A stretch of DNA of 64,000 nucleotides, taken from positions 5,706,001 to 5,770,000 of the forward strand of contig OZ076409.1 of assembly GCA_964187785.1 (NCBI GenBank). Direction: 5' to 3'. Each line of letters starts with the position of its first letter. The stretch's first letter is position 1. Under the pieces are notes generated by a model. The model was not told the DNA's origin. It did not search any database and saw only the letters and a program-made list of their open reading frames with translations. This document shows positions 4,157-61,500 of the stretch, in pieces. This stretch comes from Amphiscolops sp. MND2022. Lineage: Eukaryota. The position numbers and the translations under genes were made by a program.

Positions 4157-4171
4157 ATCTTACACCATATA

Positions 4172-12255: not shown

Positions 12256-12304
12256 CCTCATTATTCTATCCGCTGGCTCACTCAAAACTAGTCACTACAG
12301 CTGA

Positions 12305-17829: not shown

Positions 17830-18245
17830 ACTCTTCTACAGGTAATACAAAATTCTTAATTTTCCTTCTCTGATACACTCTATGATACATCTTTGACACT
17901 ATATCAAAGGTATTTAGATTTTTACATACTTAATCAAAGTGATATCTTGCTTTCTGAATGAAATCTCAGGATTATCTTTAAAGTACATACTTCTTTCCTA
18001 CAGTACATGTCAAAAATAACTATTTATGTCTAAAAACTACGATACAAGACATACAAGACAGTATAGCACAAAACTAAAGATGATACATTTTCGCACCAAA
18101 TCTTGTTGTACACCTTTGACTTGTCATTGCCATTCTTCTTAAACTTCTTTTGTTTTAGAAACATCTATTCTTCTTCCTCCTCCATCCGCATTCTTTCGAA
18201 ACATTTCCACTTCTCTCTCGTCACTATCTTCAGAACCTCGTCAAC

Positions 18246-18696
18246 ATGACTCCCAATGCTGAAACAGAAGACATTATTACCATGACCTCAGATTTCTCAA
18301 AAGTGCACAGCCTCAAAGCCGCCATATTCCACACCATGGCATTTAAACTCTCGCTCGAAATAAACAAAAACAAAATAACTCCGAAATCTCTCATTGCTTT
18401 CTTAAAGGTCCTTTACAATGTCACACAAATAAAGAAAAAAAAATACATTTGATCAATACTCGCGCATTCACCTTGAAGGCCCAAAAATTGCCATTTGCGA
18501 AACGGCGTCCAATGTCGTTTTCGTCTTAAATTCCTCCTTTACTTCAAAGGACCAATACTTCCGTACCGCCCTACAAGAAGCCAATGACGCTTTCAATAAC
18601 ATGCTTAAAGATTTCGGGAATACTCAAAAATTAGAGCTATATGACCCGCTCCAACACCAAGCTCATCCAACTCAACAACATCCTCTCTTGGCATAA
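18246..18696 (+). pseudogene. Element A ORF-Z, ~150 aa; one frameshift in the A-run near 18440
   Basis: After the shift it reads FDQYSRIH, matching FDQYLNIH in 51639-52115; same position and similar size. Confidence 0.55.
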
Positions 18697-19416
18697 ATAA
18701 AACTACTTACATTTTCTCACTCTTCAAATACATCTCATCTTCACTCCTTCATCCTTCTTCGATGATGTCTCGAGATGTGGTTGCTGATCACTCCTCCAAA
18801 GAACTTTGCTGACACTTCTCACTGCTTCACGCACACCCTCCAGATGGTCAACATCATCCATCGCCACTGGGTTCTTCCATCTTGACAACCTGCTTCTGCA
18901 ACTGTCAACTGGTCTTCACAATCGTCACTGCAATGCTGACTTCTTTCAACTTGACTGGTCTTCTCACTTTGCTCCACTGAACTGGACTCAATTCACTTGT
19001 CACGAACTGAACTCGCCGCAATTCATTTGCCAATTTCAAACTCTTTATTAGCCGTAAATGTCAAACTGTATCTTAAAAACTTTATTGTAACTTTAACGTA
19101 TAATCTTATTTATTGTAAATTCATAATATAATCTTAATAACGCATTATCTTATCTAATCTTAATCTTGTATAATCGTACTATAATTACCCCCTCTAATGC
19201 TAAACCCTTACAAATTTTCATCTATAATTATCTTTGTAACCGCAAAATATATCTTCCCAAATTATATCCCCATTGTCATGTGCATAATACATCTATTTAA
19301 CAATTCTATAATCCACATCTTTTACAGAACACAAGTCCTACTTACAGCACAAGAAATTTTCGAAGATTTTTAGACGAAAATTTTTTTTTTACAAAACATG
19401 TTCTACACCTTTGAAC

Positions 19417-19555
19417 TGAGATCTCAGAAATAGATTGTACTTAGACCTAGCTAGCTATAAGGTAAAAGTAAGACGACTCTGCTGTTAAAATCTTAGACTT
19501 CTTATGTCCGTAATAAAACATCTAAAAGAAACAACCACCGCTTTTTAACAGCTCA
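19417..19555 (+). repeat. 3' LTR of element A
   Basis: Direct repeat of 2916-3055. Confidence 0.9.
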
Positions 19556-19572
19556 AAACCAAGTACTTCAAC

Positions 19573-22884: not shown

Positions 22885-23297
22885 TCTCAGTTAACAACCC
22901 CCCCCCGCTCCTTCCAGCTGTTGAGACAGTGTCCGAACTTCACTGATCGGTTGAAGTTTCTTCAGCTCTTCCTTCTTTTTTCAGAGTTGTGTCCAGTCTT
23001 GACTGACTGGTTGATACTCTGAAAAAACGTTTCGTCCCTCACCCGCACCATCGTCAACTGACACCGCGTTTCTTCAACGCGACTTTGAGTTTATCGTGTT
23101 CCGTCCTCGTAGTCTGTGACTACTTTTAACTTAAAACAAAAAAATTGCCAGTTTCTTCGTTGAAGCGCTGTAGAAACAGTGTTGTCACCGATAATCACCG
23201 TTCTTTCTGCCACAAAACTTTTTCCTGAACTGTGTCCAAACTTAATTGTTTGATTGACGTCTGCAAAGTAACCCGATTCCCTAATTTTGACAACGTA

Positions 23298-26200
23298 ATG
23301 TCTGACCCCATTCATGAAAAGTTGCAAAAGTTGTATGACAGTCGCGCGAGAGCCGAAGCCGACTTGATTAGATATCAAAACGACGTCACAGAAGCAGTAA
23401 ACAATGCCGATAGACGCGTCCGCGTCGAACGGTTGGTCACTTCTTTCGAAGAAGCTATGACTAAAGCTTTCGCTAAGAACGAACAGCTACTCGAGCTTGC
23501 CAAGAAAACCAACGACCCGGCAACTGTCACAGCAGACTTAGAAAAATGGTTGAACGTCATGAGCATACAAAACGATGAAATTTTGAGAAACGCAAGGGAA
23601 TATATCGATCAATGTCCCAAAACAGATAATTCTTCGCAAACTTCAGTCAAAGCTGCCACCGTGAAGACTAAGTCTAGCAAAGTTTCAAGCAGCAAAGCGT
23701 CGAAAACTTCAAGTCAGCGCCAACGAGACTTGCTTATTGCCAAACACAAGCGAGAAGAAGTAGAAAGGCAAAACGAAGCTGCTTTACGACTGGCTAAACA
23801 AAAGCAAGAGCTGGAACTTGAACAACTGCAAGAAGAGAACCGCAAACGACTTGCAGAGGCGCATCTAATTGAACTTGAACTTCAAGAAGACCCATCTGAA
23901 GCTAACGAAGATGCTCATGAGATTCTTTCGCGGTTGAGCAGAACAACAGACGCTAGCGAAACGCGCCGAGTTAGTGACTGGGTTAACAACTCGCCAATCG
24001 TTACCACGACTCAACATGAGACTGTAACAGTGGAGACTGCAAGTCTAGCGACTTCTGCCGCAAATACTACCGCTTTGATCCCATCTCAGCAACCTCCGGT
24101 TAACGTCTCTCAGCCGATTTTCGCACCAGGTGATCCCAATGAAACAAACGTGGCAGTACAACTACCAACAACTACCGTTCCATCAATGAGTTTAAATCAC
24201 ACTCCTGCGGTACAAATTCAGACTCCTCCATTGACAGCGCAAAACTTTGGGAATATCGGACCTTCAACCTCGGATGTCACAGTACAACAACAAGTTCAAC
24301 CGACAATCATCCCGACCCAAACTAGAAGTTTCAATGCGCAAGTTTTACCGTCACAAACGACAGCACGGATGCCCGCGTTCACAATGCCGGTGAACCACAT
24401 CCTCCCAAACTTGTCCGCATGGACCTTCCCGAACCCGACTGTCACCACCGCACCGATTGTAACAACGATTCCGCCCCCAACACAGCCGATGGCACCTACT
24501 TTCATGCCGTTTGCTCACGCGCCAACCTATGCCGCTCCGACCGTACCCGTTACCGCTGGTGGAACTGTTTATTATATACCCCCAGCAACAGTTACAACGC
24601 CAATTGTGTACAGTACAGTAGCACAACCGACGACTTCTCTTAGTCCAACAGCCGCTACCTTTGTGCCAGCCGGAACGTCAACGACTATGCAACCAAGTAC
24701 AACCGGATTCACGATACAAGATCTTGCCTTGTTGTTAGCTTCAACGAAGAAAGACCATCTGCCAGAGTGGAAACTAGCACAATATAATGGTGACCCTATA
24801 CAATGGCATGAAAGGTTTGGCCAGTTCAAAAGTGCCATAGACTCAGCCCCACTCACCGATGACGTCAAGTTAACATACCTCAAGACTCTTGTTACAGGTA
24901 AAGCAAAAACTGCTACCGCTGAATTTGCTTACTGCGGAGCAATGTATAGAGACGCCCTAAAGACACTAGAACGGAAGTTTGGACAGCCACAGGCTGTAGT
25001 AACTGCCTATCTGGATAAGTTGGCAAACTTTCCACCCGTGAAGATGCACAACAGTGAGAGCATCATCAGTTACTCAGCAACAATCTGTTCTCTAGTTGGG
25101 GTCTTCCGATCTCTAAACTACGTCCAAGATCTCTCGAGCGCGTCATTGCTTGGACAAGCCGTTCAAAAGCTTCCGCCAAACATGAGAGAAGCATGGTCGC
25201 TGCACACAGTGAGGCGAACTTTGGACAGACCGACACTCATTGACTTCAATGACTGGCTTAAAGACAAAGCCGAAGCGCATGAGCGCATGAAGTCTCTACC
25301 CAGCAAAGCGAAACCTGAAGAAAGTAACAGCGTGACCGTAACTAAGACCAAGACTGCTTCTAAGGTTTTCGCCGCTACGACGTCTAGTCAACAAAGTGTC
25401 AGCGCCAAAGGTAAAAGCGACAAACCGTCAAACACTTGCGTCGCCTGTAAAGAAAAACATCCTTTGTGGAGATGTCCGGCATTCAGAAGAAAATCTCCCA
25501 CAGAGAGAGCAAAACTTGTAGCTGAGAACAAGCTTTGCTTTTCATGCTTCAATCAAAATCACACGTTTCGCCAGTGCCCGCAACCCCGCAAGTGTACTAA
25601 AGATGAATGCGGGAGTTCACACAACACTTTCTTACACGGAGCCGACAGAATTTTTGCCAAGAAAGTCACTGATGTGAACACGGACAAAGCTGAAACATCT
25701 GGTTGCATCGGAACGTCAGTGAAAAACAAAAGATCAGACGAGAGCTCAGGCATGCCTTCCGTTGCTGAAGTCAAAGGCCTATTACAAATAACGGAAGTTG
25801 AACTTCACTCGAACGGCAAAAGCGAAAAAGTCCTAGCACTGTGTGATTCTGCCTGCAGCCATTCCTGGATCTCAGCGAATCTGGCAACGAAGTTGAACTT
25901 ACACGGCACCCCGACCAAGCTTACTGTCCATGGCATAAATTCCAACCAAGTCGTAGACACGCACCTGGTGGAGCTTAAGTTGACACCCGTTCATTCGGGT
26001 GGCTCTTGCTCTCCCTTTGTTGTTAAACCGTATGTCAGAGAAGACCTCAAAGTCGGAACTGACACCATCGATGTCGAACTTTTGAAAACAAAGTACCCCC
26101 ATTTGCAACCAATCTCTTTGAAAAAGTACAGCTACGCCGATGTTGAAATGATCCTAGGTCAGGATGTTTTCCACTCGATCCGCCCGCTGGAGTATTTTGA

Positions 26201-29200
26201 TTCCGGCCGCAAAAATGCTCCAGTTGCCGTTCGTTTACCGTTGGGTTGGGTTTTGAGTGGACCGCTCCCCTCGTCCTCAGGTCTCTATTCAACTTGTTTT
26301 AAAGCTGTTGCTTCTAACAAGGAATTCGACTCCGAACTTGCCGACCAACTCCGAAGCTGGTACGATATCGAATCGTATGGAGCGTACAAGCAAGTAGATT
26401 CGCGTTCCGCTGCCGATGCGAGAGCGTTGGAAATACTTGAAGAAACGACTTACCACGATGGTAACCGATACCATGTGGGAATGTTGTGGACCGAAGCTGA
26501 CAGTAGTTTGCCGAATAACTACTTTTCCGCGCTCGTGCAGCTAAAATCGTTGGAACGTCGCCTCGACAAAGATCCTGAATTGAAACAACTTTATGCCAAA
26601 ACAATTCACGACGACTTCGACAAAGGTTACATCACCAAAGTTGACAAAAGCGACTGTTTCAAATTAGACCAACCCCGCGAGTGGTACCTGCCACACCATC
26701 CTGTAGTGCACACGCACAAACCTGGCAAAGTTCGCAGAGTATTGAATGGCGCAGCAAGGTTCCAGGGCCAATCTTTGAACAACGCCTTGTTAACCGGACC
26801 GGACTTGCTACAAAGTTTGATACACATACTGATCCGCTTTCGTCAACACAAGTACGCCGTCTCTGCCGATATCGAAGGTATGTTTCTTCAAGTTGGAGTC
26901 ATACCAAAAGATCAACCTTCACTTCGTTTTCTGTGGCGGGAAGACCCAGCTGCAGAAATCGCTGTGTATCAGTACGTCCGGCACATCTTCGGGTCGAAGG
27001 ACTCACCAACATGTGCGAACTACGCACTGAAACGTACTGGTAGCGATAACCAAGACGCTTTCCCTGAAGCAGCGAAAAGCGTTTATCGCAATTTTTACAT
27101 GGACGACTACTTGGAATCAAGCCCTACGGTCGAAGAAGCCAGTAACAAAGCAAAGGACTTAGTGGCACTGCTTGCAAAAGGTGGCTTTAATCTAACTAAG
27201 TTTGTTTCCAACATTAATCACCTTTCAGCCGAACTGCAACAAAGCGGCGAGCTAGCACCGACCGATGAGAAGGTGATTCCGAAACCAGACGAGTCCTCAC
27301 ATGTCTTGGGACTTAAATGGAATCATGCCTGTGACACTCTTGTTGTAAGTCGAGGAACGAGCCCTGCTACGAACAAGAAACTCACTCAACGAGTGGTACT
27401 GAGGGTCGTTTCAGCTGTCTACGATCCCATTGGACTCGTTGCTCCGTTTACAGTCCAAGCAAGACTGTTGTTGAAGAACATCTGGAGATTGAGTGGTCAA
27501 CAGTGGGATGACGATCTGCCGAACGAAATTGTAACCAAGTTCAACGAATGGAGCAAAGAGCTACCAACTTTGAGTGAAATCCAAATCCCAAGGAGCTACT
27601 TTGGAGAGCAAGTTGAATCGTTGGAGCTTCATATGTTCGGTGACAGCTCGCAAGATGTCTTCAGCGCCGTCGCCTTCCTACGAGGAAAAGTTGCCACCAC
27701 GACTGGTTATATAACAGAGTTAGCTTTCGTCTTCGGAAAAGCCAGAGTGGCACCCATGAAAGCCCTTACAATCCCGAAGCTGGAACTACAAGCCTCGTTG
27801 CTTGCTGCACGACTCCGAAAAGAAATTGAAAGTGCGCTAACGGTCAGAGTTGACAACACTTTCATGTGGACGGACAGTACGACAGTCCTGCAGTTGCTCT
27901 ATTCATTAGAGAAGCAACCGGTGTTTGTCACCAATCGTGTTGCCGAAATCCTGGAACTGACAACAGCGGATGAATGGAACTATGTCAAATCAATTGACAA
28001 CCCCGCTGATGCAGGAACGCGTGGTCTTTCAGCCAATTCACTTCGTGACAGTCCTTGGCTTAAAGGTCCTTCATTCTTGCGAACACACGACTGGCCGTTC
28101 AAACCACCAAAACACGTTGAGATCAAATTGAAAACAAAAAAGTGGGACTTTCCCAATTCGGATGAAGAAACTTCGGAATTTTTGTCTGCTTTAAGTGCAA
28201 CTGTGATCGGCATCGCGACAACTTTCGAGTGGCAGAAGTACAGCTCATACGAGAAACTTATGCGCGTTGTTGCTTACATTTTGCGCCTACTGCCAAAAAA
28301 CGAAGGTTACCGCTCCGACTCTGGTTTAGTAACTGACCCGAATGAAATGCGAAATGCTGAAATGAGACTTTTCTATCTCATCCAACAAGAGTCATTTTCC
28401 CTCGAATTGAAGTGCTTGCTGAAACAATCCCCCTTCAACAACTCTTCCAAAGTTTCCCAATTCTCCCCTTTCATTGGGCCTCAAGGCCTACTGCGAGCAA
28501 CCGGCCGGACCAAACAACTAACAGTTTCCAACTTCGACGCAAAACACCCTATTTTACTGGACAGCTGTCACCCCGCCATACGCTTGTACTTAGAGCAGCT
28601 CCACGAAACGCATTGCCATCAGGGTGTCCACTACATGAGGGCGTTGGTGCAGCAACAGTTCGCCATCGTCAAGCTTAGAACCGCCCTGAGGTCAATTGTC
28701 TCCAAATGTGTCACTTGCCGCAAACGTCGAGCGGAAACTCTCAACCCGATAATGTCCGACCTTCCTCGGGAAAGACTGGCATTTCAAGAGCGTTCATTTA
28801 CGAACACCGGAATTGACTATTTTGGTCCGTTTTACGTAGCTGTGAAAAGATCAACCGAAAAACGATGGGGATTCCTATTTACTTGCTTAACAACCAGAGC
28901 TGTCCATTTTGAAGTTGTCCCGTCAATGGACACTAGTAGCTGTGTTATGGGAATCGAAAGATTTGCCGCCCGTCGGGGCGTCCCATCAGTTTTGTGGTCT
29001 GACAACGGAACCAATTTCATCGCCAGTGAAAAGGAGTTACTGCAAAACGTGTCAGCGTGGAACCAACAGATTCTGTCTGAAGCTTTGGTCAAAAAACGGA
29101 TCCACTGGAAGTTCAATCCTCCCAGTGCTCCCCACCACGGAGGTGTCTGGGAACGAATTGTCAGGAGCTTCAAACACGTTTTTTACGCAATTCTTGGAAA

Positions 29201-29705
29201 TCGTCGCCTAACCGACGAGATATTAACAACTACTTTTCGTCTTGTAGAACAGAGTCTCAATTCCCGCCCACTGGTGCCCGTCAGCTCCGACGCTACGGAT
29301 TTTGACGCCTTAACACCAAACCACTTCCTGTTGGGAACCGCGGGTTCCACAATGCCATCACACCAAAGAGCCGACTTCGACCACAGGAAACGCTACGCAC
29401 GTGCGCAAGCGTACTCAGATGCTATTTGGGACCGTTGGCTAAAAGATTACGTTCCGTCGCTTAACCGCCGTTCGAAGAGGTCAGCCCAACCAGATCAAGA
29501 TCTCAAGATCGGGGACCTTGTCTGGATTGTGGAGCCTACGAGTCCCCGAGGACATTACCCACTTGCACGTGTGGTCAAGCTGAACTACGGTACCGACGCT
29601 GTCGCTCGTTCTGCAGAACTGAAAACCGCAACAGGAAACCTCATTCGACCCGTTGTCAAACTCGCACCCGTTCTTCCGTCCCCCGATTCCCCCAATCTTA
29701 CTTAA
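23298..29705 (+). CDS. BEL/Pao Gag-Pol polyprotein (gag with Cys/His knuckles, protease, RT, RNase H, integrase)
   Basis: Uninterrupted ORF, first ATG 23298. Motifs YNGDPIQW, three CCHC-type knuckles, LCDSAC, WYLPHHPV, ADIEGMF, FYMDD, FGDSS, TIPKLEL, GIDYFGP, SDNGTNF and GGVWER. Confidence 0.95.
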   Translation: MSDPIHEKLQKLYDSRARAEADLIRYQNDVTEAVNNADRRVRVERLVTSFEEAMTKAFAKNEQLLELAKKTNDPATVTADLEKWLNVMSIQNDEILRNAREYIDQCPKTDNSSQTSVKAATVKTKSSKVSSSKASKTSSQRQRDLLIAKHKREEVERQNEAALRLAKQKQELELEQLQEENRKRLAEAHLIELELQEDPSEANEDAHEILSRLSRTTDASETRRVSDWVNNSPIVTTTQHETVTVETASLATSAANTTALIPSQQPPVNVSQPIFAPGDPNETNVAVQLPTTTVPSMSLNHTPAVQIQTPPLTAQNFGNIGPSTSDVTVQQQVQPTIIPTQTRSFNAQVLPSQTTARMPAFTMPVNHILPNLSAWTFPNPTVTTAPIVTTIPPPTQPMAPTFMPFAHAPTYAAPTVPVTAGGTVYYIPPATVTTPIVYSTVAQPTTSLSPTAATFVPAGTSTTMQPSTTGFTIQDLALLLASTKKDHLPEWKLAQYNGDPIQWHERFGQFKSAIDSAPLTDDVKLTYLKTLVTGKAKTATAEFAYCGAMYRDALKTLERKFGQPQAVVTAYLDKLANFPPVKMHNSESIISYSATICSLVGVFRSLNYVQDLSSASLLGQAVQKLPPNMREAWSLHTVRRTLDRPTLIDFNDWLKDKAEAHERMKSLPSKAKPEESNSVTVTKTKTASKVFAATTSSQQSVSAKGKSDKPSNTCVACKEKHPLWRCPAFRRKSPTERAKLVAENKLCFSCFNQNHTFRQCPQPRKCTKDECGSSHNTFLHGADRIFAKKVTDVNTDKAETSGCIGTSVKNKRSDESSGMPSVAEVKGLLQITEVELHSNGKSEKVLALCDSACSHSWISANLATKLNLHGTPTKLTVHGINSNQVVDTHLVELKLTPVHSGGSCSPFVVKPYVREDLKVGTDTIDVELLKTKYPHLQPISLKKYSYADVEMILGQDVFHSIRPLEYFDSGRKNAPVAVRLPLGWVLSGPLPSSSGLYSTCFKAVASNKEFDSELADQLRSWYDIESYGAYKQVDSRSAADARALEILEETTYHDGNRYHVGMLWTEADSSLPNNYFSALVQLKSLERRLDKDPELKQLYAKTIHDDFDKGYITKVDKSDCFKLDQPREWYLPHHPVVHTHKPGKVRRVLNGAARFQGQSLNNALLTGPDLLQSLIHILIRFRQHKYAVSADIEGMFLQVGVIPKDQPSLRFLWREDPAAEIAVYQYVRHIFGSKDSPTCANYALKRTGSDNQDAFPEAAKSVYRNFYMDDYLESSPTVEEASNKAKDLVALLAKGGFNLTKFVSNINHLSAELQQSGELAPTDEKVIPKPDESSHVLGLKWNHACDTLVVSRGTSPATNKKLTQRVVLRVVSAVYDPIGLVAPFTVQARLLLKNIWRLSGQQWDDDLPNEIVTKFNEWSKELPTLSEIQIPRSYFGEQVESLELHMFGDSSQDVFSAVAFLRGKVATTTGYITELAFVFGKARVAPMKALTIPKLELQASLLAARLRKEIESALTVRVDNTFMWTDSTTVLQLLYSLEKQPVFVTNRVAEILELTTADEWNYVKSIDNPADAGTRGLSANSLRDSPWLKGPSFLRTHDWPFKPPKHVEIKLKTKKWDFPNSDEETSEFLSALSATVIGIATTFEWQKYSSYEKLMRVVAYILRLLPKNEGYRSDSGLVTDPNEMRNAEMRLFYLIQQESFSLELKCLLKQSPFNNSSKVSQFSPFIGPQGLLRATGRTKQLTVSNFDAKHPILLDSCHPAIRLYLEQLHETHCHQGVHYMRALVQQQFAIVKLRTALRSIVSKCVTCRKRRAETLNPIMSDLPRERLAFQERSFTNTGIDYFGPFYVAVKRSTEKRWGFLFTCLTTRAVHFEVVPSMDTSSCVMGIERFAARRGVPSVLWSDNGTNFIASEKELLQNVSAWNQQILSEALVKKRIHWKFNPPSAPHHGGVWERIVRSFKHVFYAILGNRRLTDEILTTTFRLVEQSLNSRPLVPVSSDATDFDALTPNHFLLGTAGSTMPSHQRADFDHRKRYARAQAYSDAIWDRWLKDYVPSLNRRSKRSAQPDQDLKIGDLVWIVEPTSPRGHYPLARVVKLNYGTDAVARSAELKTATGNLIRPVVKLAPVLPSPDSPNLT

Positions 29706-39866: not shown

Positions 39867-40066
39867 NNNNNNNNNNNNNNNNNNNNNNNNNNNNNNNNNN
39901 NNNNNNNNNNNNNNNNNNNNNNNNNNNNNNNNNNNNNNNNNNNNNNNNNNNNNNNNNNNNNNNNNNNNNNNNNNNNNNNNNNNNNNNNNNNNNNNNNNNN
40001 NNNNNNNNNNNNNNNNNNNNNNNNNNNNNNNNNNNNNNNNNNNNNNNNNNNNNNNNNNNNNNNNNN
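39867..40066. other. Assembly gap
   Basis: Run of 200 N. Confidence 1.
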
Positions 40067-50381: not shown

Positions 50382-50550
50382 TGTGTGCTGCCTTAATTCT
50401 TAGTAGTGTGGTGGTTATTTTAGAGACTAACTAAGACAGGCTTATTCGAGGTTTATCTAGCTAGATTTCTGATGGTAAGAGTAGAACAAAAAGGAAGTCA
50501 ACCAAATACTGATTATTAACTTTCTCTCTCTGAGGGAGTAGAGACTTACA
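50382..50550 (-). repeat. Probable 3' LTR of element B (~168 bp)
   Basis: Minus strand TGTAAG...GCACACA; shares CTAGCTAG and AACCACCACAC with the LTR of A. The partner LTR is not in the window. Confidence 0.6.
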
Positions 50551-51457
50551 ATCATTCAATAAATAAATGTACATTATATAAACATTAAAATACTATTGGT
50601 TATTAATGTAGGTCAGTACATCCATCCCGGTTTTTAAATAAAATAAAATTTTACAATAACATCATTAAATAAAATAATAAAAAAATTTTTGTTTATATGT
50701 TTTTAGCGTTCCAGCTAGTTAACATTTTTCATTTGATGGATGATTGGCATAAGTCTCTTTAAGAGTTGTGTAAGTTCGACTCATTGATCTACCTCGAATT
50801 GTTAAAATTTTGATTGACACCTCGTAGGTGCGACTAACAGTTCAAAAGCGTCACAGTGTTCTTTTTCACTATGCTTTCGTCGGCTTGTTTTTTGAACTGG
50901 TAGATGCTCAATTTATGTTTCTGTTGAAGTTTTTGGAATAACTTCGCATTGAACAAACGTGAGAAAACATCATACGAGTTAGAGGTTAAAGAGTCATTGA
51001 AAAATTTTGTTGACAAAAAAATCTTTTATGTGTGAAAACTTTCTGAAATGATATCAGGTTGTGATTAACTTTGGCGGGTTTGTTATGTAAGAAGTGTTGA
51101 AAACTTCGAGAATTTAGGTCTATCATTATTCAAATCTGAGTTGAACAATGTGCTTGATCTAATTTTGAACTAGTTTTGTTGAAATTTGAGAGAAAAATTT
51201 TTGTTAACATATATTGTATATCTGGATGGAATAGCACCGAAAAATAATAATTATTCATTAAAAATGAGAGCAAATAAATATCGGTCTGGGCTGAAATTGG
51301 ATTTTATGGGCAAATAAATAAGGGGGGGAACTTAAAATTAAAATAAAATACATACTGCGAATGTTTTCTAATATATTTCTAAATATTATCATGCACAGTG
51401 TTTTTTCTTTGCTTTTGAGTTTCTTTATTCTTGCTAATTAATTATCTTCGGTTGGAC

Positions 51458-51638: not shown

Positions 51639-52115
51639 CTAGAAAGAGACGTAAGTATATGTTTTGAATGGGTTGTTGTCATCTAGAACTGCTTCGGGTG
51701 GGTCTTTTTGAAGTTCTTCATCCGTATCGGCGTTATCATCTGAAGGCCAATAGGAATCCAAATGTTGTTTTTCCATTTCGGAACGTATTCTATTTGTCAG
51801 ATTGCGTAAAAAACGTTTGGGTTTTATGGTAGTATGTTCCGTTTGGGTAGCGGCGTCTCGTTGGGTTGAATTTGTATCTGGATGTCTGTGAATATTGAGG
51901 TACTGGTCGAAATTTATTTTTGTTATCTGGAATATTTGGAACATATTAAGCAATATCATCCTTGTAAGATGGGGATTTGCCTTTTTGTCTGTTTTTAGCT
52001 GTGCATTTAATGTTGTTAAATGCTTTTTCAGGATTAAGGATCGTAGTCGAGCTGATGAAATGGAAAGCAAAGGAGCTATGGGGCAGTCTGTTTCGCCAGT
52101 ATGGATAGTGGTCAT
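51639..52115 (-). CDS. Element B ORF-Z, 158-aa accessory protein of unknown function
   Basis: Intact ATG-initiated ORF; FDQY..IH shared with A; contains DAATQTE and an acidic tail. Confidence 0.6.
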   Translation of the reverse strand: MTTIHTGETDCPIAPLLSISSARLRSLILKKHLTTLNAQLKTDKKANPHLTRMILLNMFQIFQITKINFDQYLNIHRHPDTNSTQRDAATQTEHTTIKPKRFLRNLTNRIRSEMEKQHLDSYWPSDDNADTDEELQKDPPEAVLDDNNPFKTYTYVSF

Positions 52116-52637
52116 TTTGAAATGAAATGAAGAATTCTTCTGGAAATTTGAGAATAGCTGATGAAGTTCCCTTTGGATGGAAGGTTCGAAGATAGAAGGA
52201 ATGCTGAAGAAGCAGTTTCTGCGATATTCACCTAAAATAGATTAGTTTGTTTACATTAAATTTCTCTTTAAAATTGAATTTCATAGTTGACATTTTTTTG
52301 TTGTAATCTATGATGTTATAACTTTTTAATTTTAAGAATTAAGTTGCTGTATTTTGGAAGTCTTTTGAAGGGTATTTAAATATCTTTCATATGTGTACTT
52401 ATTTGTTGAAATCGGTCCATTAAAAGGAGGAGCAAATTCTAAATTTTGTTAAAATTTTTTATGTCGCTTTTGAAAATTTTAGTTATTATTTAAATTTAAA
52501 GTGTATTTTAACATCAAGCATATATTAAATCATGCATAACAGGCATATACGTGTAGACTCAATTAATTTTGACAGGTTGTTAAGGGATTAAGAGTGGTAA
52601 CACTTATCTCTTAAAGTTATTATCCGATAATTACCAG

Positions 52638-53945
52638 TTAAGATCGATGCATTTTTTCAATTGTATAGTTGAATTCGTCCAATGATGTGCGAATACACAA
52701 AGCTGATTGGCTAATTCTGGTCGTATCAAATACGATATTTTGTATTATGCTTCGAGCTTGTTCAAGGGCATTTACAATTTCGACAATTGTTGTAAGAATA
52801 TCTCGGTTCGAATGGTGATAAGGTTTTATAATATTCAGAATTTCTGTATATTTCTGCAATTCTTCTGTTGGGCGAAAATGTTGTGGTTGAGGAGTATCAT
52901 TTTTTATCTTCTTTGGTGATTCTTGTTTTGATTTTTTATGTTCTTTATGAATCTTTTCGTTATAATTCCCATTTGTAAGAAGTGATAGTAGGTGAGAAAT
53001 AATGAAAATTAATTCATTATTTGAATATCCCTTTTTGGTCATTGCATAGAAATAGGATTTTTCACAATCTCCCAAAGGTTGAGAGGCTATTTGTTGAAGT
53101 GGAGGAAGAGGATCGTGTATCTGTTGAGGAATATCTTCTTGTAATAATGGATCGTCGTTCAAAATGAGGTATTCTTGCGGAACAATGATTGGTCTTTTTG
53201 GGTTATCATTTGGAAGAAATAGGAAACTTTGTTTCAGTGGATCATAATTTCTAAGTTTTCCTTTGGTTTTAGTATGATCTATTAAATATTCTGAGTTGAG
53301 AATGAATGGCGAGGTGTATTTGGAGTTGAAGAATATGTAATTATCGGGCTCTTTATATTGGAGAAACTTTTGATACGTTATATGATGAGCCTTTTTAATT
53401 TGATATGGCAAGAAGTTTGCATCATTTTCTTCGGTTCGAAGATCGTATGGCGATGGTCTGAGGAAGTTGTATTGTAATGAGAAACTTTTCACTTTATTAT
53501 TTAACCACCAATCATATGGGGTTATCAATTTTGAAGCAATTGATGTATGATAATCATTTCGAAATTCTCGAATGATGAATTTGTATTTTGTTGGAATCAT
53601 ATATAAAGAAGTTAAATGAGATTGGAAGGTGAATTGTTTTGATGAGAGAATAGGAACTAATTCACAATCTCTATCTTCATCCTGTTTCATTGGTTTTATG
53701 AATGGAGGACAAGCGCCAGATTCCATAAAAGGTTTATCTGCAGTTATATCTGGGTATTTTCTCTTTTGAGATCTTGCGTTAACATAATCTATTTGTTCAA
53801 CAGGAATAGTTTCTATGGGATCTTGAGAGTTAAAAGAAGAATTATTTTCTTCGTTGACATTTTGTTGAATAGTTATATTCAAAGGGGGTGCAAGCAATTC
53901 AGAGGGAGTAGAATTTACTACATCAATTTCAGGCGAGGATTCCAT
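52638..53945 (-). CDS. Element B ORF-Y, 435-aa accessory protein of unknown function
   Basis: Intact ORF, collinear with 16501-17829. Confidence 0.85.
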   Translation of the reverse strand: MESSPEIDVVNSTPSELLAPPLNITIQQNVNEENNSSFNSQDPIETIPVEQIDYVNARSQKRKYPDITADKPFMESGACPPFIKPMKQDEDRDCELVPILSSKQFTFQSHLTSLYMIPTKYKFIIREFRNDYHTSIASKLITPYDWWLNNKVKSFSLQYNFLRPSPYDLRTEENDANFLPYQIKKAHHITYQKFLQYKEPDNYIFFNSKYTSPFILNSEYLIDHTKTKGKLRNYDPLKQSFLFLPNDNPKRPIIVPQEYLILNDDPLLQEDIPQQIHDPLPPLQQIASQPLGDCEKSYFYAMTKKGYSNNELIFIISHLLSLLTNGNYNEKIHKEHKKSKQESPKKIKNDTPQPQHFRPTEELQKYTEILNIIKPYHHSNRDILTTIVEIVNALEQARSIIQNIVFDTTRISQSALCIRTSLDEFNYTIEKMHRS

Positions 53946-54396
53946 TATTTAGACTTGCGTGCTTTTGTAGAGCTAAAATAATTATAATTTCTAATGATAC
54001 TAGGTCTGGTACTAGACAAAATTAGTGTTATATCCTTTTTATCCATTAATTTGTTAAAATTTAAGTTTAAATTGTACTTACACTATGGAATATTGAATCA
54101 ATGGTTGGTTGAAAACATCAACAATCACAGTGGTATCTATTCCCGGAATAGAAACTTCTGTGGTTTTGGTTTTCTAGATGGAGTGGAAATCCAATTGAAG
54201 TCTTCTGGTTGAAGGCTGAGTTGTGATAGAAGATGAGGGCTGAGTTGTGATAGAGTGAAATTTCTTTCAGTTAAAAAGGAAGAACTGGTCCGGGTGAGAA
54301 TTTGGGTTTGAATGAAAGTTAAGCTGAGAAGAATTTTATTAATAATATTCTGAACTTTTTCAGAGGTTAATTTGTTTATTGAGTTAGTTCTTTTTG

Positions 54397-56967
54397 CTAG
54401 GTGGGGTTAAATTTTATGAAGACTTTAGCAGGGCTTTCCGGTATAGTTATTATATTCGGCAATACTGGGTCATAGTCCTGAGAATTAATATCATTGATAG
54501 TAGTTGGGTGTGTCTTTTGCGGTGATTGAAATGTTGAATTCTTACTGGAATATTTAGGAGGTAAATAAGGGGAGTCATTATCAGAGTATTTTCTTTTTAC
54601 ATCTTTTTCCGGCAATAGGATATTATCATTTTCACTTGTTGTGATTTTATGTTTAGTATATATCCGTTTTCGTTTTCCTGTATTGTTTAAATCGGTAACC
54701 ATTTCCGATGTAACTATATTAAAAAATCCATGGGCTATTGAACTCAAAATGGAAATGTTACTTTGGAGATTATATTTTATACTAATTGTTCTATAAAATT
54801 TGAGTAAGAATGTTAAAATTTCTCTAATGAAAAGAAATGTTGAAAAATAAATTCCACATTGTGTTAAAACATAGCATGGATATCCAAAGAAATTAATGAA
54901 TGCTTGACTAAACCAGTCGGGGTTAAAAAGTGGTAAAAGATTTAACAAGTGGTCGTGTACTCCAATCCTTAAATGATTATAAGGATTATGTCCTGAGTAT
55001 GAATGTTTATCATTATGTACTGAAATAAAATCATAGCTCAATGATTTTCCGAGTAATTGAAGGGTTGTGTCTGAATGTTTAGCAAATAATACTCTGTTCC
55101 AGAATTGATCTAATTCTGCATTTGAGTATATACCAGCATCTTGGGCGGTGAATGTATTAGGAGTAATTGTTGTTTTAATTTGGGTAGGTTTAAACATTTG
55201 TGGAGCTTCTCGTTTAAGTGGTTCTGGTGTTAACACATAAAAATCTCCGTCATTTGAGTCTGGGTCCAATTCGATTATATTTTGTGGATTATTTCCACAT
55301 TCAATTGGTGTGGCATAGTTAAAAGTTTGTCTTGTTATAGGATCAACATACATTATTGTTTCTCTATAATGTATGGGAATTCTATCAAAGCATTTATCTG
55401 CCTTGTATAGTGGGGATATAAAATGAGGGCAATCATACAGCCATGCTGTAGATCCTTCAACGTAAAGAAAGTTACTACGATTTCCAGTTAAAAGAAAACC
55501 GGCTAATTGAGGGTTTTTAACTGACATAGCTAAGATTGTTAACAATTGAGTTCTTTCTAGTTCACATATAGTATGAAGAGTGTTTAGTTCTTGTACTGTC
55601 ATGGATTTGAATACATGATTTATTGTAAAATCATTTTTTGTATTTATGTGGGCATCATAATCTAAAGTGGCGAAATTGTTTGATATATTCAATGCGGGGA
55701 ATATATACTTTTTATTTGAGTTATCATATTTTATGTTTCCACTAATTGTTTGATCGATTATTGAGTGTGGTTTGGGTAATCCTGTGTTCATATCAAAACC
55801 ATCTAAATATGTAACAAAAATATCATCATATTGTGTTGAGAATAATGGCTCAGGTTTTCCACAAAAGGTTTGTGCAATTGGGTATATTTCAAATCGAGAA
55901 AGACTTGGATTGCTTATTTTCGATTGTGGTGTTTTCACATTGGGATATCGTGTCCCTTGTATTCCTTCGGTTTGGAGTTTTTGTGTGATATTTGAAGTTT
56001 CAATAAAGGTATCGGTTTCTATCCAATATCTATCTTTGATTCGTGTCATTCTACCAATAAATTCTTGAAGTTGAAATATGAGACAAAATTTTTCATCAAA
56101 CCATGTTAATGTATAAGGAGTTTTAGTTGTTGGTTTACAAAATCCATCTGAATGGTAGCATGGTAATATATGTCCATCATGTATTAATTGATTATTTTTG
56201 TCGTCATAGTCTATTGCAGTATTAACAATTCTAAGTTTCCAACTTTGTCGGGTAATTAAATGTTCTCGGTCTGATCGACATCTAGAGTATGTGTTTTGTG
56301 TAACATTAACTATCCAGTCGGGATAATTTTCATCAAATACGAAGGTTCCAATATGCCATGTATTTAATTTTGTTACTCTAAATGGTGTTTGGATTCGTTC
56401 AATTGTGTTTTGATAGTTACTATCGCCGAATAATGAGAAAGAGCTTTGTATATTGTAATTGTTTAATTCTTCGCTATCAGTCGCGTTTAAATATCTTATC
56501 ATATTTTTGCATTCAATAGGGTCCAATATTTTTGGAAGTTCTAATGTGTTTTGTCCCCATTGTAAACGATCATATCGTCTACTAGATGTAAATGTTTGTG
56601 AACACCAGACTTTTTCAGTCTTTATGTATGCTTCACATTTAAAGGCTTTTATTCTTTTGGCTTTTGCTCTAACATAAACTGTTGCTTGGGTTTTTGCGTG
56701 TTGTATATCTGAGGGTGCTTGTTTACATGGTTCAACATTTAATAAACTAAACTGTCTTAAATTATTTTGTTTTGCACAATCATAATGGGATACCATTAAG
56801 TTTAAAATGTTAGGATCTTGATCTGAGATATGGTTTTCAGGATTTGTTGTGTCAACTTTAGGAACATTTGAAGAATAAACTAAGGAGAGAACTGTATGAA
56901 TTATATATGTGTATTTGATAGCTTGTATTATACTCAGTAAATAAAAGGGAAAGATGATTTGGTTCAT
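54397..56967 (-). CDS. env: Element B envelope glycoprotein, 856 aa, gB/chuvirus-G-like (putative class III fusogen)
   Basis: Hydrophobic N-terminus, YDC..FSLLNV..C, CELER, C.DRIPI.Y..YVDPITR, GIYS..EL, C-terminal TM and cytoplasmic tail. Confidence 0.88.
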   Translation of the reverse strand: MNQIIFPFYLLSIIQAIKYTYIIHTVLSLVYSSNVPKVDTTNPENHISDQDPNILNLMVSHYDCAKQNNLRQFSLLNVEPCKQAPSDIQHAKTQATVYVRAKAKRIKAFKCEAYIKTEKVWCSQTFTSSRRYDRLQWGQNTLELPKILDPIECKNMIRYLNATDSEELNNYNIQSSFSLFGDSNYQNTIERIQTPFRVTKLNTWHIGTFVFDENYPDWIVNVTQNTYSRCRSDREHLITRQSWKLRIVNTAIDYDDKNNQLIHDGHILPCYHSDGFCKPTTKTPYTLTWFDEKFCLIFQLQEFIGRMTRIKDRYWIETDTFIETSNITQKLQTEGIQGTRYPNVKTPQSKISNPSLSRFEIYPIAQTFCGKPEPLFSTQYDDIFVTYLDGFDMNTGLPKPHSIIDQTISGNIKYDNSNKKYIFPALNISNNFATLDYDAHINTKNDFTINHVFKSMTVQELNTLHTICELERTQLLTILAMSVKNPQLAGFLLTGNRSNFLYVEGSTAWLYDCPHFISPLYKADKCFDRIPIHYRETIMYVDPITRQTFNYATPIECGNNPQNIIELDPDSNDGDFYVLTPEPLKREAPQMFKPTQIKTTITPNTFTAQDAGIYSNAELDQFWNRVLFAKHSDTTLQLLGKSLSYDFISVHNDKHSYSGHNPYNHLRIGVHDHLLNLLPLFNPDWFSQAFINFFGYPCYVLTQCGIYFSTFLFIREILTFLLKFYRTISIKYNLQSNISILSSIAHGFFNIVTSEMVTDLNNTGKRKRIYTKHKITTSENDNILLPEKDVKRKYSDNDSPYLPPKYSSKNSTFQSPQKTHPTTINDINSQDYDPVLPNIITIPESPAKVFIKFNPT

Positions 56968-56996
56968 TGTTAAAGTACCAGTTAATATTTCTATAG

Positions 56997-58469
56997 TTAA
57001 AATATTGTTCTATAATTAAGTCCGGAGTAAGGATTAAAAAAGTTTATATGTCCCGTTCTAATTTCGGGTAGGTCTGCGTCACAAAGATAAGAAATGGAAG
57101 TGACTATGAATGGTGATGGAGTTGTTTTGTGTGCTACTCTTGTTGAAAGGGAAAACAGATGAGGTCCTAAAGAGTTGAAAGTTACTTCTACTTCAAATTT
57201 TAATGTGAGTTGTTGTTCTTGTAATCTTCTTAATTCTCTTTGTTTTCTTTGAGTTGAGAGTGAGCTGTTATTTATAAATCTTACAGGTAAGACTGTATAT
57301 CGAGGATCTTCGTGTAACGTACGGACAATTTTTGAGTTAACACGAATGGGATATTCGTCAGGGTTTGGTGTTGGAGGTCTTGAAAAATCTTCTAGAAAAT
57401 ATTCAAGTAATTGAATAGAAGAGTTTGATGCAATTGAACTGGGTGAATAAACTCGTGAGAAATTAGCTGCGGTATCTGATATAGTTGCTGGGTCTTCAGA
57501 TATAAGAGAAGCTGTTTCAAATCCTGATGTGATTTGAAATGGTAGTGACAAGGAAGATGGTATAGTAGGTTGAGATGAGGAAAGAGAAGAAGTGTCTAGT
57601 CTAGGTTGAGCGTGTTGTCTAAGTAGTCTGGAGTTTGTACTTGAACTTGTTAAAGATTGTAATTCTTGAGAGTTTCTCTGTTGTTGAGATCGAAGATTAT
57701 AACTATGTCTCGGTACTCTAGTACTAGCAGTGGAGTCAGAATCTTTATCTTTATTGTATAGATCTGTTAAAGAAGAAGTAGTTGAATTTACACGTTGCAA
57801 TTCGAGTTTAGGATATAATTGAGAAAATGTGAATGAACTTAGTTCACTCGGTGAAGGTGTTAGGTATTGTTGTAGTTTTTCTGTTGGTGTTTTTAATGAA
57901 GGTTCTGGTAAAAATGTTATTGGAGTGTTACTTGATGATGGTAAATTAGGGTTTTGTGTTAATGTAGGTAAAGGAGGTTTTCTTTTTGTTTTTGTTGCTG
58001 TAGGTATTTTATGTGGACAAGTATTTATGTATTGTAATACTGAACTTGGATCAGGAATATGAACAGAACGAGTAGTAGTAATTGGTGGAAGAGGAGGTCT
58101 ATTTAAGATATTTAAGGTATCTTGTGTATTTGGTGTTGTAAGTGATTCATCACTATAGGTAGAAGCTGGTGAATTTGTTTCTTCAAATGTTTGATTTCTT
58201 GAGATAGGTTGTGGTTGAGTTGGAGTTATAGGTGTATTGGTGGGTGTTGTTGGTGCTCTATCAGGAGTATATGGAGCAGATGGGCTAGGATTTGAGGATG
58301 AGGAATCCAGTATGTCTGTATCTGTATCTAAATATGCTGTATATTCAGGTAATCTTTGGAGTGAATGTGTTGAACTAGAAGATGAGTTATTTGTAGTTGA
58401 TGATGGTGAGTGAATATGTCTATCAATCTTGAAATTTTTGTTATGGTAGTTTGGTTTGATTATAAAAGT
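56997..58469 (-). CDS. Element B ORF-X; 490 open codons with no in-frame Met
   Basis: The frame of ORF 56997-57800 stays open upstream to a TAA at 58472-58470; homologous to 12305-13582. Confidence 0.75.
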   Translation of the reverse strand, partial: TFIIKPNYHNKNFKIDRHIHSPSSTTNNSSSSSTHSLQRLPEYTAYLDTDTDILDSSSSNPSPSAPYTPDRAPTTPTNTPITPTQPQPISRNQTFEETNSPASTYSDESLTTPNTQDTLNILNRPPLPPITTTRSVHIPDPSSVLQYINTCPHKIPTATKTKRKPPLPTLTQNPNLPSSSNTPITFLPEPSLKTPTEKLQQYLTPSPSELSSFTFSQLYPKLELQRVNSTTSSLTDLYNKDKDSDSTASTRVPRHSYNLRSQQQRNSQELQSLTSSSTNSRLLRQHAQPRLDTSSLSSSQPTIPSSLSLPFQITSGFETASLISEDPATISDTAANFSRVYSPSSIASNSSIQLLEYFLEDFSRPPTPNPDEYPIRVNSKIVRTLHEDPRYTVLPVRFINNSSLSTQRKQRELRRLQEQQLTLKFEVEVTFNSLGPHLFSLSTRVAHKTTPSPFIVTSISYLCDADLPEIRTGHINFFNPYSGLNYRTIF

Positions 58470-58589
58470 TTATTTTCGAATTTCTTCCGTGTATTATCAC
58501 TTGTGAAATACTTTTCATTCAATTCCACATTAATCTTCAAGCTTTCTCTTCCAAAAAATTTTTTATGTATTTTTCCTGTATTCCGTATT

Positions 58590-61500
58590 TCAGCAGGAAT
58601 TTTGAGAAAGTGAATTTATATCCTTTTCACCAAGAAAGAGTCGATAATCTTTTCTTGGTTGTGGGCGGAAATTGTATCTATTAGAGGAGTGTCTTCGAGG
58701 ATTAATAAAATTGTCATAGTCATGAATATCTGATTGGTTATCTAAGCTGATATTTTGAGGGATTTGTTCTTTTTGTTGGTACGGAAATGAAGAATAATGA
58801 CTGAATGGTTCTGATTGGAAGTCAATTGTGGATGGTATATCCGTTTTTTTTATTAGATGTTGTGGAATAAAATTGATCTTCGTCGCTAGATTGATTTTCA
58901 TCGGAATTAGTTGTTTGATTGTTTATATTTGAATGGCTATCATTGAATAACTGTGGATTATACTGTTGTAAGAAGGGGAAAATAGTTGGTTCCTTTGGGT
59001 AATAAGGAATTAAATGATTTCTATGTATGTGAGATGTATACCCATCTTGGCTAACAATTTCATATGTTATGTCGGAAATTTTATTAATAATTTTGAATGG
59101 TCCAATTCGAAGAGGTTTTAATTTATCTGAAAAATGAACATGGAGGAAATTTCTTTTTAGTACAAATGTACCAATATCCAAAGGTCTCGGATTGTGGTAT
59201 GTTTTGTTAAAATAAGCGTAGGAATTTATTTTTCTTTTTGTGTTTTCATATACTGTATGGTATCTTTGTATCATAGCAGTTTCAGTAGCTAAGATCCATT
59301 GTGGTATTGGTTTAGATAGAATTTTATGAAAGAAAGGGTTTAAGTTTGATTTATCATAGTGTGTATGAAGTGGTAATTCTTGACAATATTGAGAAGTACA
59401 ATTTCTATATGTATCTCTGTGAAGGTTAAGTTCAAAATTGATAGGAATTCTTGGTATAGTATGAAATACTATTTCATATGGAGATAAATTGATTTCAGAA
59501 AGTGGTTGTGAATTATGTGCATAAGCATACATGTGAACTTGAGTAGACCAGTTTTCCGGAGTATTATGTAAAAAAAGTCTAAGATGAGTTCCAAGATTTC
59601 TGTTTTGATTTTCAACTAGACCATTAGTCCATGGTGCATAAGGAGTTCTTGGTGAATGTCTAATTCCCATTGTGGTACAAAGATTTGCAAATTCTGAGTT
59701 GATATATTCTGTTCCACGGTCGGTAACTAAATATACAGGAGGTCCGAATTTTGTTATCCAATGATGTAGTAATGAGTTAACAGCATTTTGAGCATTGTTT
59801 TGTTTTATTGGTACTGTTACTACAAAGTGGCTAAAAGCGTCAACTATAACATGAATGTATGAATTTTGGTTTGATGGTGGATTTATAGGTCCTTTTGTAT
59901 CCATTGATATTCTGTAATTGAAGTATGAAGCGTTTTCTGAGAATGTTTGTACTGATGCAGTTTGTAGTTTTTGGTTAATATGTTTATTTTGTTGACATTC
60001 GATACAATCATGAATGAATATTGACATCCATTTATTCAAGTAGGGTATGAAGTAAAATTGGTTAAAAGCTTTGATGGATATTTTTATTCCTGAATGTCCA
60101 TGGGCGTGAAGTTTGTTGAAAGCTGCGTAAAAGAGTTTAAATGGTAAACATATTTTGTCTCTTTGATTTGGATTGGAATCGTGAAGATTAGGGTAGTCTA
60201 TGTGGATAATTTTTGTATCATGGTTAATGTATAATTGATTGAAAATTTTATATTATACTAATAAGAAAGAATTAGCTGCAATTGTTGGATCTATTTGTGA
60301 AGGTCTTTCATTATTAAGAATCCATTGATAAACTTTTTGTAAAACAGTGTCTTGGTTTTGTTGGGTTTTTATTGTTTCAATGGTTATTTGTGTATTTTCC
60401 GGTAGAAAAAAATAATTAAAATATTTTTTGTATTTGAAGAAGGACGGGTCAAAAAATGGAACTTGTTGTTTACAGTAATCAGATTTAGTTGGATATTGTA
60501 TAGCAAATGTATGTTCTTTTGTTTGGTATTGAACATTATTAGATTGAGTTGGTTCATCTTCATCACTGAGGATATCAGTATCATTAAGAATTGTCGATTG
60601 TTGTAAAAGAGATTTTGCTTGATTTTTTGTAGGCCTTTTATACTTTGATTCAAATGGAACAATAGATTGAAAAGAGAATGAGTCTAAAGGCTTTATGTGA
60701 ATATCTTCTCCTTTGTTATTAATGCGGATTGAGAATTGGTCGTCTCCATAATCAGCAAGGATAGGATGACAGTCATTCTTCTGGTTATATTTAATTTCTT
60801 CATGCTTTACTAAATAATGTACTGGTTTGATTTGATTGTCTTTCAAGATAGAGAATTCTATTTGAGGTGGTAATTGTTTGTGACGTAATTGATGTACTTG
60901 TAATTGTTCTTTTGTAAAGGTTCGTGAAAGCATATCTGCTACAGTTAAGTTTTTTCCAGGTGTATGAATGATTTTCAGTTTGGAGAATTTGGTTAGTTGC
61001 ATTTGTGCTCTATAGAATCTAGGACTAAGATTTCCTTTCTTTGCGAAACAATGTAGTAAAGGTTTGTGATCTGTAAAAAGGTATATAGGATAAGGGGATC
61101 CGATGATTAAAAATTCATATATTTGTAATGCGTAAACTATTGCGAGGAGTTCTCTGTCTAAAGTTGAAAGCTTTTGTTCTTGTGTGTTAAGAATTCTTGA
61201 GTTATAAGAGATTACTTTCATTTTGTTTTCTTCGTTCGTTTGGAATAAGACTGCGCCTAAACCAACTAACGAGGCATCTACTGTTATGAAAAATGGATTT
61301 GTTGTATTGGGTATTGTTAATTCAGTGTCTGCTGTCATTGCATTTTTAACATTTTGAAATATTGCTTCCAATTCAGGTGTCCATTGGAATTTAACGTCGT
61401 CATGCAATAGTGTATACAATGGTTTAAGATTTATATGAAGTTTTTCAATGAACTTTGAATAGAAATTAACACTGCCAAGAAATTGCATAACATCTTTCTT

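Follow-up and report, generated by a model that had tools for sequence, protein, structure and literature searches.

Two related retroelements with an AUG-poor gene between pol and env

The DNA analysed here is a 64-kb window of the 1.07-Gb assembly of Amphiscolops sp. MND2022 (contig OZ076409.1, positions 5,706,001 to 5,770,000). The window is dense in retroelements and carries two related ones, copy A on the forward (+) strand and copy B on the reverse (−) strand. Both have long terminal repeats (LTRs), a tRNA primer-binding site, a pol gene with the order reverse transcriptase (RT), RNase H, integrase, and an env gene downstream, as expected for envelope-carrying Ty3/gypsy elements (Metaviridae). 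The Pfam matches follow the same order (RVT_1, RT_RNaseH, rve and then a viral fusion glycoprotein). In copies A and B alike, TGGTGCGAC directly adjoins the end of the 5′ LTR. The family consists of 17–18 kb env-carrying Ty3/gypsy-type elements with the gene order gag-pol, ORF-X, env, ORF5. ORF-X, an open reading frame (ORF) between pol and env, is our subject. It contains no in-frame AUG and lies within a stretch that is almost free of AUG codons in all three frames and ends at the env start codon. This stretch is referred to below as the AUG desert. The coordinates of all features are listed in Table 1.

Table 1. Positions of the features of copies A and B. Numbers are window positions unless prefixed L043.
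Feature	Copy	Position	Strand	Remarks
Complete element	A	2912–19556	+	16,645 bp; LTRs 145 bp, 96.5% identical
Element	B	50384 to 4.7 kb past the window end	−	18,308 bp; LTRs 237 bp, 100% identical
3′ LTR	B	50384–50620	−	237 bp
5′ LTR	B	window-equivalent 68455–68691, outside the window	−	237 bp
5′ leader	B	L043 3556–5454, window-equivalent 66556–68454	−	1.9 kb
pol C-terminal tail	B	58590–58922	−	frame differs from integrase ORF; contains YNFRPQPRKDYRLF
Three-codon upstream ORF	B	58519–58530	−	ATG-TGG-AAT-TGA
Upstream ORF of conserved ATG	B	58441–58518	−	TGAATGA context, T at −3; 25 codons
Upstream ORF opened by TGA-ATG	A	12305–12322	+	five codons
AUG desert	B	56968–58515	−	1,548 nt; single ATG (58150) in any frame
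AUG desert	A	12308–13523	+	1,216 nt; two ATGs (12453, 13239)
Only ATG inside desert	B	58112–58150	−	off-frame; opens 12 codons
ORF-X	B	56997–58469	−	490-codon open frame; no Met, no Trp
ORF-X	A	12341–13582	+	in-frame stop 12623–12625; 41% identical to B over 390 aa
ATA-CTG-GAT	B	58305–58313	−	conserved; CTG 58310–58308 is codon 54 of open frame
ATC-CTG-GAT	A	12362–12370	+	CTG at 12365–12367
PSAP	B	58272–58283	−	ORF-X aa 63–66
LYPKL	B	57804–57818	−	ORF-X aa 218–222
env	B	54397–56967	−	856 aa; Pfam Monjiviricetes_fusion, 6.7e-25
env ATG	A	13524–13526	+	within ORF-X 3′ end; frame broken farther downstream
ORF5	B	52638–53948	−	436 aa; no Pfam match
ORF5	A	16414–17829	+	38.5% identical to B over 366 aa
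ORF6	B	51639–52241	−	200 aa; no Pfam match
TGAATGA sites	B	58515–58521; L043 5411–5417, 5623–5629; 50552–50558	−

AUG codons are depleted in all frames of ORF-X

On the sense strand of copy B, the ATGs around the desert are at 58530, 58518, 58150 and 56967, the last being the env start. In copy A they are at 12305, 12453, 13239 and 13524 (env). The two inside the copy A desert open only ATG-TAA (12453) and ATG-GTA-TAA (13239). The ATG positions given in a sequence-only reading of this DNA, which had pointed out the desert and proposed that ORF-X and Env are made from one RNA by leaky scanning, are all confirmed.

The copy B desert contains 9.0% G and the TG dinucleotide is rare (31 in 1,548 nucleotides [nt]). 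Hence, the counts were compared with shuffled sequences. The single ATG of copy B compares with 14.7 expected from mononucleotide shuffles (none of 2000 as low) and with 9.6 ± 2.5 from dinucleotide-preserving shuffles (none of 1000 as low). The two ATGs of copy A compare with 11.9 and 10.3, respectively (1 of 1000 dinucleotide shuffles as low). Within the copy B ORF-X, codon permutation predicts 8.6 off-frame ATGs against the one observed (P = 0.0005). When the protein was kept and only synonymous codons were shuffled, the expectation was 4.5 (P = 0.0065). The ORF-X deficit acts at both levels, the neighbourhood of residues and the choice of codons.

The same controls were applied to the other ORFs of copy B, namely four 490-codon blocks of gag-pol, integrase, env and ORF5, and for codon permutation only also ORF6. 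Ratios of observed to expected off-frame ATGs were 0.67–1.50 under codon permutation and 0.87–1.24 under synonymous shuffling. Since these ORFs are close to expectation, the deficit is specific to ORF-X. The 18.3-kb copy B element has 272 ATGs, which define 271 gaps. The longest gap, 1,183 nt, is in the desert and the next longest is 436 nt. Sliding windows of 1,548 nt over the element contain a median of 24 ATGs. The minimum of 2 is over ORF-X, and the next-lowest windows (5–6 ATGs) fall on the 5′ leader. This leader is the sole other ATG-poor zone (8 ATGs compared to 18.6 expected, P = 0.001), and its ATGs open short ORFs, including a start-stop ATG-TAA at 67423. The leader was the only region known beforehand to separate the RNA 5′ end from a start codon, the gag AUG. 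Thus, a region that is scanned shares the ATG-poor trait.

The depletion recurs in six lineages

Searching the same genome with diverged relatives identified six lineages, named B, A, C, E, D and F, with 20, 12, 10, 8, 8 and 1 loci, respectively (95 copies of lineage F were scored). The ORF-X proteins of the six lineages are about 30–45% identical, and synonymous divergence between A and B in ORF-X is about 1.5. Intact representatives of all six lineages have no in-frame ATG in ORF-X, and internal Met is absent from seven of the seven distant homologues recovered by profile search. For off-frame ATGs, the ratio of observed to expected under codon permutation was 0.12 for B, 0.13–0.25 for D, 0.32 for A, 0.43 for C and 0.46–0.56 for E. 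Lineage F has one ATG in 1,573 nt compared to 9.4 expected (dinucleotide shuffles, none of 1000 as low); this is off-frame within ORF-X, where codon permutation predicts 6.9 (P = 0.0025). The desert noted in copies A and B is therefore real: it outlasts both the composition controls and the codon-preserving shuffles, is confined to ORF-X and is found in every lineage.

The few ATGs that survive in lineage-shared sequence are of the kind that scanning tolerates. The deserts of lineages A, C and E have 2–4 ATGs each, mostly opening ORFs of 1–2 codons; they comprise ATG-TAA, an ATG followed by a single codon, and an ORF of 29 codons whose ATG is in weak context (C at −3, T at +4). The corresponding ORFs have 12–16 codons in B and D, and 41 codons, with a weak start context, in F. 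Decayed individual copies, for instance L024, L025, L026, L030 and L031, carry private ATGs. Hence, ATGs arise readily in this DNA and are missing only from the sequence shared by a lineage.

ORF-X is a coding gene

The ORF-X frame is free of stop codons in 75 of the 87 genomic copies scored (out of 9,827 candidates). Between lineages, the ratio of nonsynonymous to synonymous divergence (dN/dS) is 0.14–0.37 in frame and 0.8–3.4 when the same DNA is read off-frame. ORF-X is coding, and evidently a real, translated gene under purifying selection. Copies A and B are 65–73% identical in DNA over pol and env; over ORF-X the DNA cannot be aligned. Copy A has decayed, with a stop codon inside ORF-X and a broken env frame.

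The protein is rich in Ser, Thr and Pro and predicted to be mostly disordered, with a conserved C-terminal domain. Pfam contained no match to it, a protein-atlas search gave no usable match, and word-based and profile searches returned only unnamed relatives. AlphaFold models had a mean confidence (pLDDT) of 41 for the whole protein and 57 for the C-terminal 191 aa. Foldseek searches of BFVD and PDB found no match at E ≤ 0.001, and an origin from a mononegavirus matrix protein, which we had considered, is left without structural support. One 508-aa database protein, P0019, matches both ORF-X (90% identity over 64% of it) and the beginning of env (97% over 22%). In some other copy the two frames are thus fused, presumably by an insertion or deletion.

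A conserved CUG is a candidate start codon

Because ORF-X has no AUG, its translation most likely begins at a near-cognate codon. The sequence-only reading had instead singled out an upstream ATG in a TGA-ATG context. Its description was accurate: the context is weak (T at −3), and the ATG is in frame with ORF-X in copy A and one base out of frame in copy B. It is, however, no start for ORF-X. The copy B upstream ORF (uORF) at 58518 ends before the candidate CTG described below. In copy A, the ATG at 12305 is followed by two stop codons before the ORF-X frame opens at 12341, and in intact A-lineage copies the TGA-ATG uORF is out of the ORF-X frame. Throughout, this uORF is short (25 codons in B, 5 in A and E, 10 in C) and ends before conserved ORF-X coding sequence. 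Lineage F lacks the upstream TGA-ATG altogether; its 210 nt upstream contain no ATG.

The 5′ limit of protein conservation in ORF-X is marked, in six of six lineages, by the sequence AT(A/C)-CTG-GAT, encoding I-L-D. MAFFT misaligned this motif between lineages and it was therefore located by pattern. The CTG has A at −3 and G at +4. It is present in 45 of 47 copies parsed by pattern, the exceptions being one CCG and one GTG; among 58 loci, it was seen in 4 further copies and 7 had no anchor. CTG is otherwise rare in ORF-X (1–2 of 40–50 Leu codons), and other conserved Leu positions vary their codon freely. Of 108 conserved columns, no other retains a G-ending codon across the five lineages aligned. 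In some copies of lineages E, A and F, the ORF-X frame opens merely 5–7 codons before the CTG. In lineages A and F, the interval from the stop that opens the frame to the CTG lacks AG, which makes an AUG spliced in from upstream hard to accommodate. We consider the conserved CUG, with moderate confidence, to be the most likely start codon of ORF-X.

The heptamer TGAATGA, which surrounds the upstream ATG, occurs four times in copy B, counting both LTR copies (1.0 expected). The sites are about 20 nt after TATATAA in each LTR, 38 nt after the 5′ LTR, and before ORF-X. We considered this sequence as a gene-junction or initiator signal; it is absent from the copy A LTR and from lineage F, and is not systematically intergenic.

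The env start codon and its relation to ORF-X

In every lineage, the first AUG to open a long frame is that of env. Its context includes a purine at −3 or G at +4 among the lineages, with A at −3 in copy B. The Env N-terminus is hydrophobic and resembles a signal sequence. Both the AUG context and this N-terminus point to an independent start of env. From the ORF-X stop codon to the env AUG the distance is +29 nt in B, +2–3 nt in D and F, and −58 nt, an overlap, in A, C and E. Relative to ORF-X, the env frame is +1 in A, C and E, +2 in B and D, and the same in F. The fixed and conserved stop-start spacing expected of termination-reinitiation is thus absent, with both spacing and frame being variable. 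The varying frame relation, and env's own signal-like segment, argue against fixed stop-start coupling and against a fusion of ORF-X to Env by frameshifting, which we rejected. Readthrough from pol into ORF-X was also rejected; several stop codons intervene and the frames differ among lineages.

The lineages have no conserved splice acceptor in front of ORF-X, nor one in front of env. The CTACAG at 12295–12300, earlier suggested as an acceptor, is present in A and reads CTACAA in C; B and F have no equivalent.

Proposed leaky scanning and competing explanations

We propose that ORF-X starts at a non-AUG codon and that ribosomes get to env by leaky scanning of the same mRNA; we give this proposal an even chance of being correct. 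Initiation of ORF-X would take place at the conserved CUG, in its A(−3)/G(+4) context. Such a start would be inefficient, so that most 40S subunits would continue scanning. The 1.2–1.6 kb of ORF-X, nearly AUG-free in all frames, would then allow these subunits to arrive at the env AUG. Both ORF-X and Env would in this way be made from one mRNA. Scanning to the env AUG is favoured as the best explanation of why ATGs are scarce in each of the three frames. That translation starts at the CUG, that the mRNA is shared, and that it comes from splicing or an internal promoter are inferences. Leaky scanning as originally suggested for this locus is thus retained as the best fit, with a different start codon for ORF-X and without the acceptor that had been named.

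Several observations weigh against this proposal. The CUG was noticed post hoc, after looking at the data, and the conservation of I-L-D may be no more than that of a peptide motif. In lineages B and D the frame opens 42–52 codons farther upstream of the CTG. A conserved hairpin 3′ of the CUG was not found in the six lineages (folding z-scores −3.3 to +0.9). Off-frame depletion in lineages A, C and E reaches individually only P = 0.03–0.12, and all six lineages come from one genome so are not fully independent. The span to be scanned, 1.2–1.6 kb, exceeds the 900 nt documented for rice tungro bacilliform virus (RTBV). In Drosophila gypsy, env is expressed from a spliced mRNA without upstream genes (PMC4276936), and an env-only mRNA may likewise be made here. 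Finally, the first 490 codons of the copy B gag-pol frame hold a single Met, and the absence of Met alone is for this reason weak evidence.

In gypsy, the mRNA for env is as a rule spliced (PMC4276936), and env could here be translated from its own spliced or internally promoted mRNA, starting past most of ORF-X. ORF-X would then be expressed separately, and its lack of AUGs would serve some other end or reflect a peculiar protein composition. The Ser/Thr/Pro-rich, disordered nature of the protein might supply such a composition, and the one-Met block of gag-pol is likewise disordered. That block nevertheless has 26 off-frame ATGs, a ratio of observed to expected of 1.5. In copy B, AG dinucleotides do follow pyrimidine or AT-rich runs just 5′ of the env ATG, but these sites are not conserved, and in lineage C there is no AG within about 35 nt. 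An env mRNA of this type also leaves unexplained why off-frame depletion is limited to ORF-X, why ATG is avoided among synonymous codons, and why the remaining ATGs open start-stop or very short ORFs. We regard it as unlikely. An alternative that would itself need the AUG desert is that splicing supplies ORF-X with an AUG from an exon farther upstream, such as the leader or the gag start, with env reached by leaky scanning or reinitiation. There is retroviral precedent, the env of avian leukosis virus using the gag AUG by splicing, and the copy B leader is ATG-free between element positions 66 and 278. However, lineages A and F have an in-frame stop 6–7 codons before I-L-D and no AG from there up to the CTG, so that the acceptor would fall downstream of a motif conserved as coding. 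Nor is CTACAG conserved. This makes a spliced-in AUG quite unlikely.

The constant closeness of the ORF-X stop codon and the env AUG (29 nt, 2–3 nt or a 58-nt overlap) would suit reinitiation at env after translation of ORF-X, or a frameshift into env. Neither predicts AUG depletion, because translating ribosomes ignore internal AUGs. In addition, spacing and relative frame depend on the lineage, and an Env with a signal-like N-terminus of its own is not what a fusion protein would require. We consider both very improbable. The least credible explanation is that the desert is a by-product of composition, few ATGs being expected on a strand with 9% G. ORF-X is indeed G-poor (7–10%), as well as short of TG. 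Even so, the 4- to 10-fold deficit in copy B persists in mononucleotide, dinucleotide, codon-permutation and synonymous shuffles, and equally G-poor blocks of gag-pol (8.8–9.4% G) have ratios of observed to expected ATGs of 0.9–1.5. Composition was thus tested directly and not upheld.

Late-domain motifs in ORF-X

Viral proteins with late domains, which recruit the endosomal sorting complexes required for transport (ESCRT), carry P(T/S)AP and/or LYPxnL motifs in a disordered region. ORF-X has LYPxL at an aligned position in six of six lineages, with Y219 and P220 invariant in alignment A1, and PSAP in four of six. We take these to match the consensus motifs of late budding domains. In shuffled proteins, one or more such motifs arise with a probability of 0.02–0.08 per protein. 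At the level of motif presence, ORF-X therefore resembles a late-domain protein, and a role as a budding adaptor is offered as a hypothesis only. A broader scenario may be drawn, in which a single subgenomic RNA of an animal LTR retroelement family is scanned over ~1.5 kb in the manner of RTBV. A CUG-initiated, AUG-less and largely disordered late-domain protein would serve in budding by bringing ESCRT to the other product, a glycoprotein of the negative-strand RNA virus type, and ORF-X and env might have been captured together as a matrix-glycoprotein cassette. This scenario is speculative and, as a whole, rather unlikely.

Further features of the elements and the window

The gag-pol frame of copy B has 2,100 codons and contains RT and RNase H, with the integrase frame next. 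The gag-pol frame stops at 60253–60255 (−) and integrase resumes immediately in the same reading frame; the stop may be one that requires readthrough or else a defect of copy B. The integrase ORF ends at 58822. In A-lineage copies the tail homologous to the pol C-terminal tail is contiguous with integrase, and in most of the 20 near-identical B copies the alignment to integrase stops at roughly the same point. The stop codon of the copy B pol tail, at 58592–58590, is the 5′ limit of the inter-gene zone. No counterpart of ORF6 was detected in copy A.

The sense strand of both elements is A-rich and very G-poor (7–13% G) in all genes. GC skew is −0.3 to −0.58 over copy A and +0.25 to +0.38 over copy B. 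Elsewhere in the window, a BEL/Pao element has an uninterrupted frame of 2,157 codons at 23232–29705 (+), in a GC-richer stretch (48% GC), with Peptidase_A17, DUF1759, DUF5641, RT and integrase zinc-binding domains. A run of 200 N at 39867–40066 may be an assembly gap.

Comparison with known systems

For plant pararetroviruses, polycistronic translation by scanning across long genes that lack AUG has been documented. If our proposal is correct, the same translational solution arose separately in two branches of reverse-transcribing elements. A conserved AUG-less gene, present in thousands of genomic copies, would have been missed by ordinary annotation. Env-carrying retrotransposons would have an unrecognised accessory protein, possibly related to budding. 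AUG deserts could then serve as a signal, readable from sequence alone, by which endogenous viruses may be searched for non-AUG genes and concealed polycistronic units. A literature search, mostly at abstract level, did not turn up any description of AUG-free genes or leaky scanning for animal LTR retroelements.

The elements share with errantiviruses and other env-carrying Ty3/gypsy elements their LTRs, primer-binding site, gag-pol order and position of env after pol. They differ in size (17–18 kb) and in gene content, with one additional conserved gene separating pol from env and one or more following env. As in gypsy elements with Chuviridae-like glycoproteins, env here matches Pfam Monjiviricetes_fusion. 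Such elements, with class III glycoproteins, have been described in several arthropod orders (PMC13524379); the stems 'splic' and 'scanning' are absent from the main text of that paper.

The earlier comparisons of this locus were with vpu-env of HIV-1 (human immunodeficiency virus type 1) and with some plant pararetroviruses. In the HIV-1 system, and in rev-env of simian immunodeficiency virus (SIV), a single spliced mRNA encodes an accessory ORF and, downstream of it, Env, as proposed here for a shared mRNA; Env is translated by leaky scanning or by uORF-mediated sorting (PMC5902531). The upstream ORFs of HIV-1 and SIV are, however, short and have an AUG in weak or moderate context, whereas ORF-X has 410–490 codons and no AUG, in weak context or otherwise. 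The HIV-1 analogy thus fits less well than that with RTBV, which has a non-AUG start.

CUG-initiated retroviral proteins such as glyco-Gag of murine leukaemia virus likewise begin at a weak start, a CUG in favourable context, upstream of the main AUG on the same RNA. That CUG lengthens the frame translated from the AUG, whereas the one proposed here would give rise to a gene of its own.

RTBV and the badnaviruses (Caulimoviridae) are the closest parallel, our proposal matching what has been demonstrated for ORFs I–III of RTBV. In RTBV (PMC5902531), ORF I starts at AUU, which captures about 10% of ribosomes. The remaining ribosomes scan 900 nt through ORFs I and II, which have no internal AUGs, and insertion of a short uORF into ORF II is harmless. 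The likeness extends to an upstream non-AUG start, in our case a candidate, to long coding sequence free of AUGs in all frames, to tolerance of short uORFs, to a downstream AUG that is the next productive start, and to reverse transcription. Like RTBV, our elements have a long upstream ORF with AUGs below shuffle expectation in every lineage. The differences are that the host here is of animal type, that the elements have LTRs, integrase and an envelope gene, that the AUG-free span is longer, and that the downstream gene is env rather than a polyprotein. The RNA is probably subgenomic here and pregenomic in RTBV, and our elements are known from sequence alone. Taken together, the ORF-X/env arrangement is best read as one in which leaky scanning past a long gene without AUG codons would deliver ribosomes to env.

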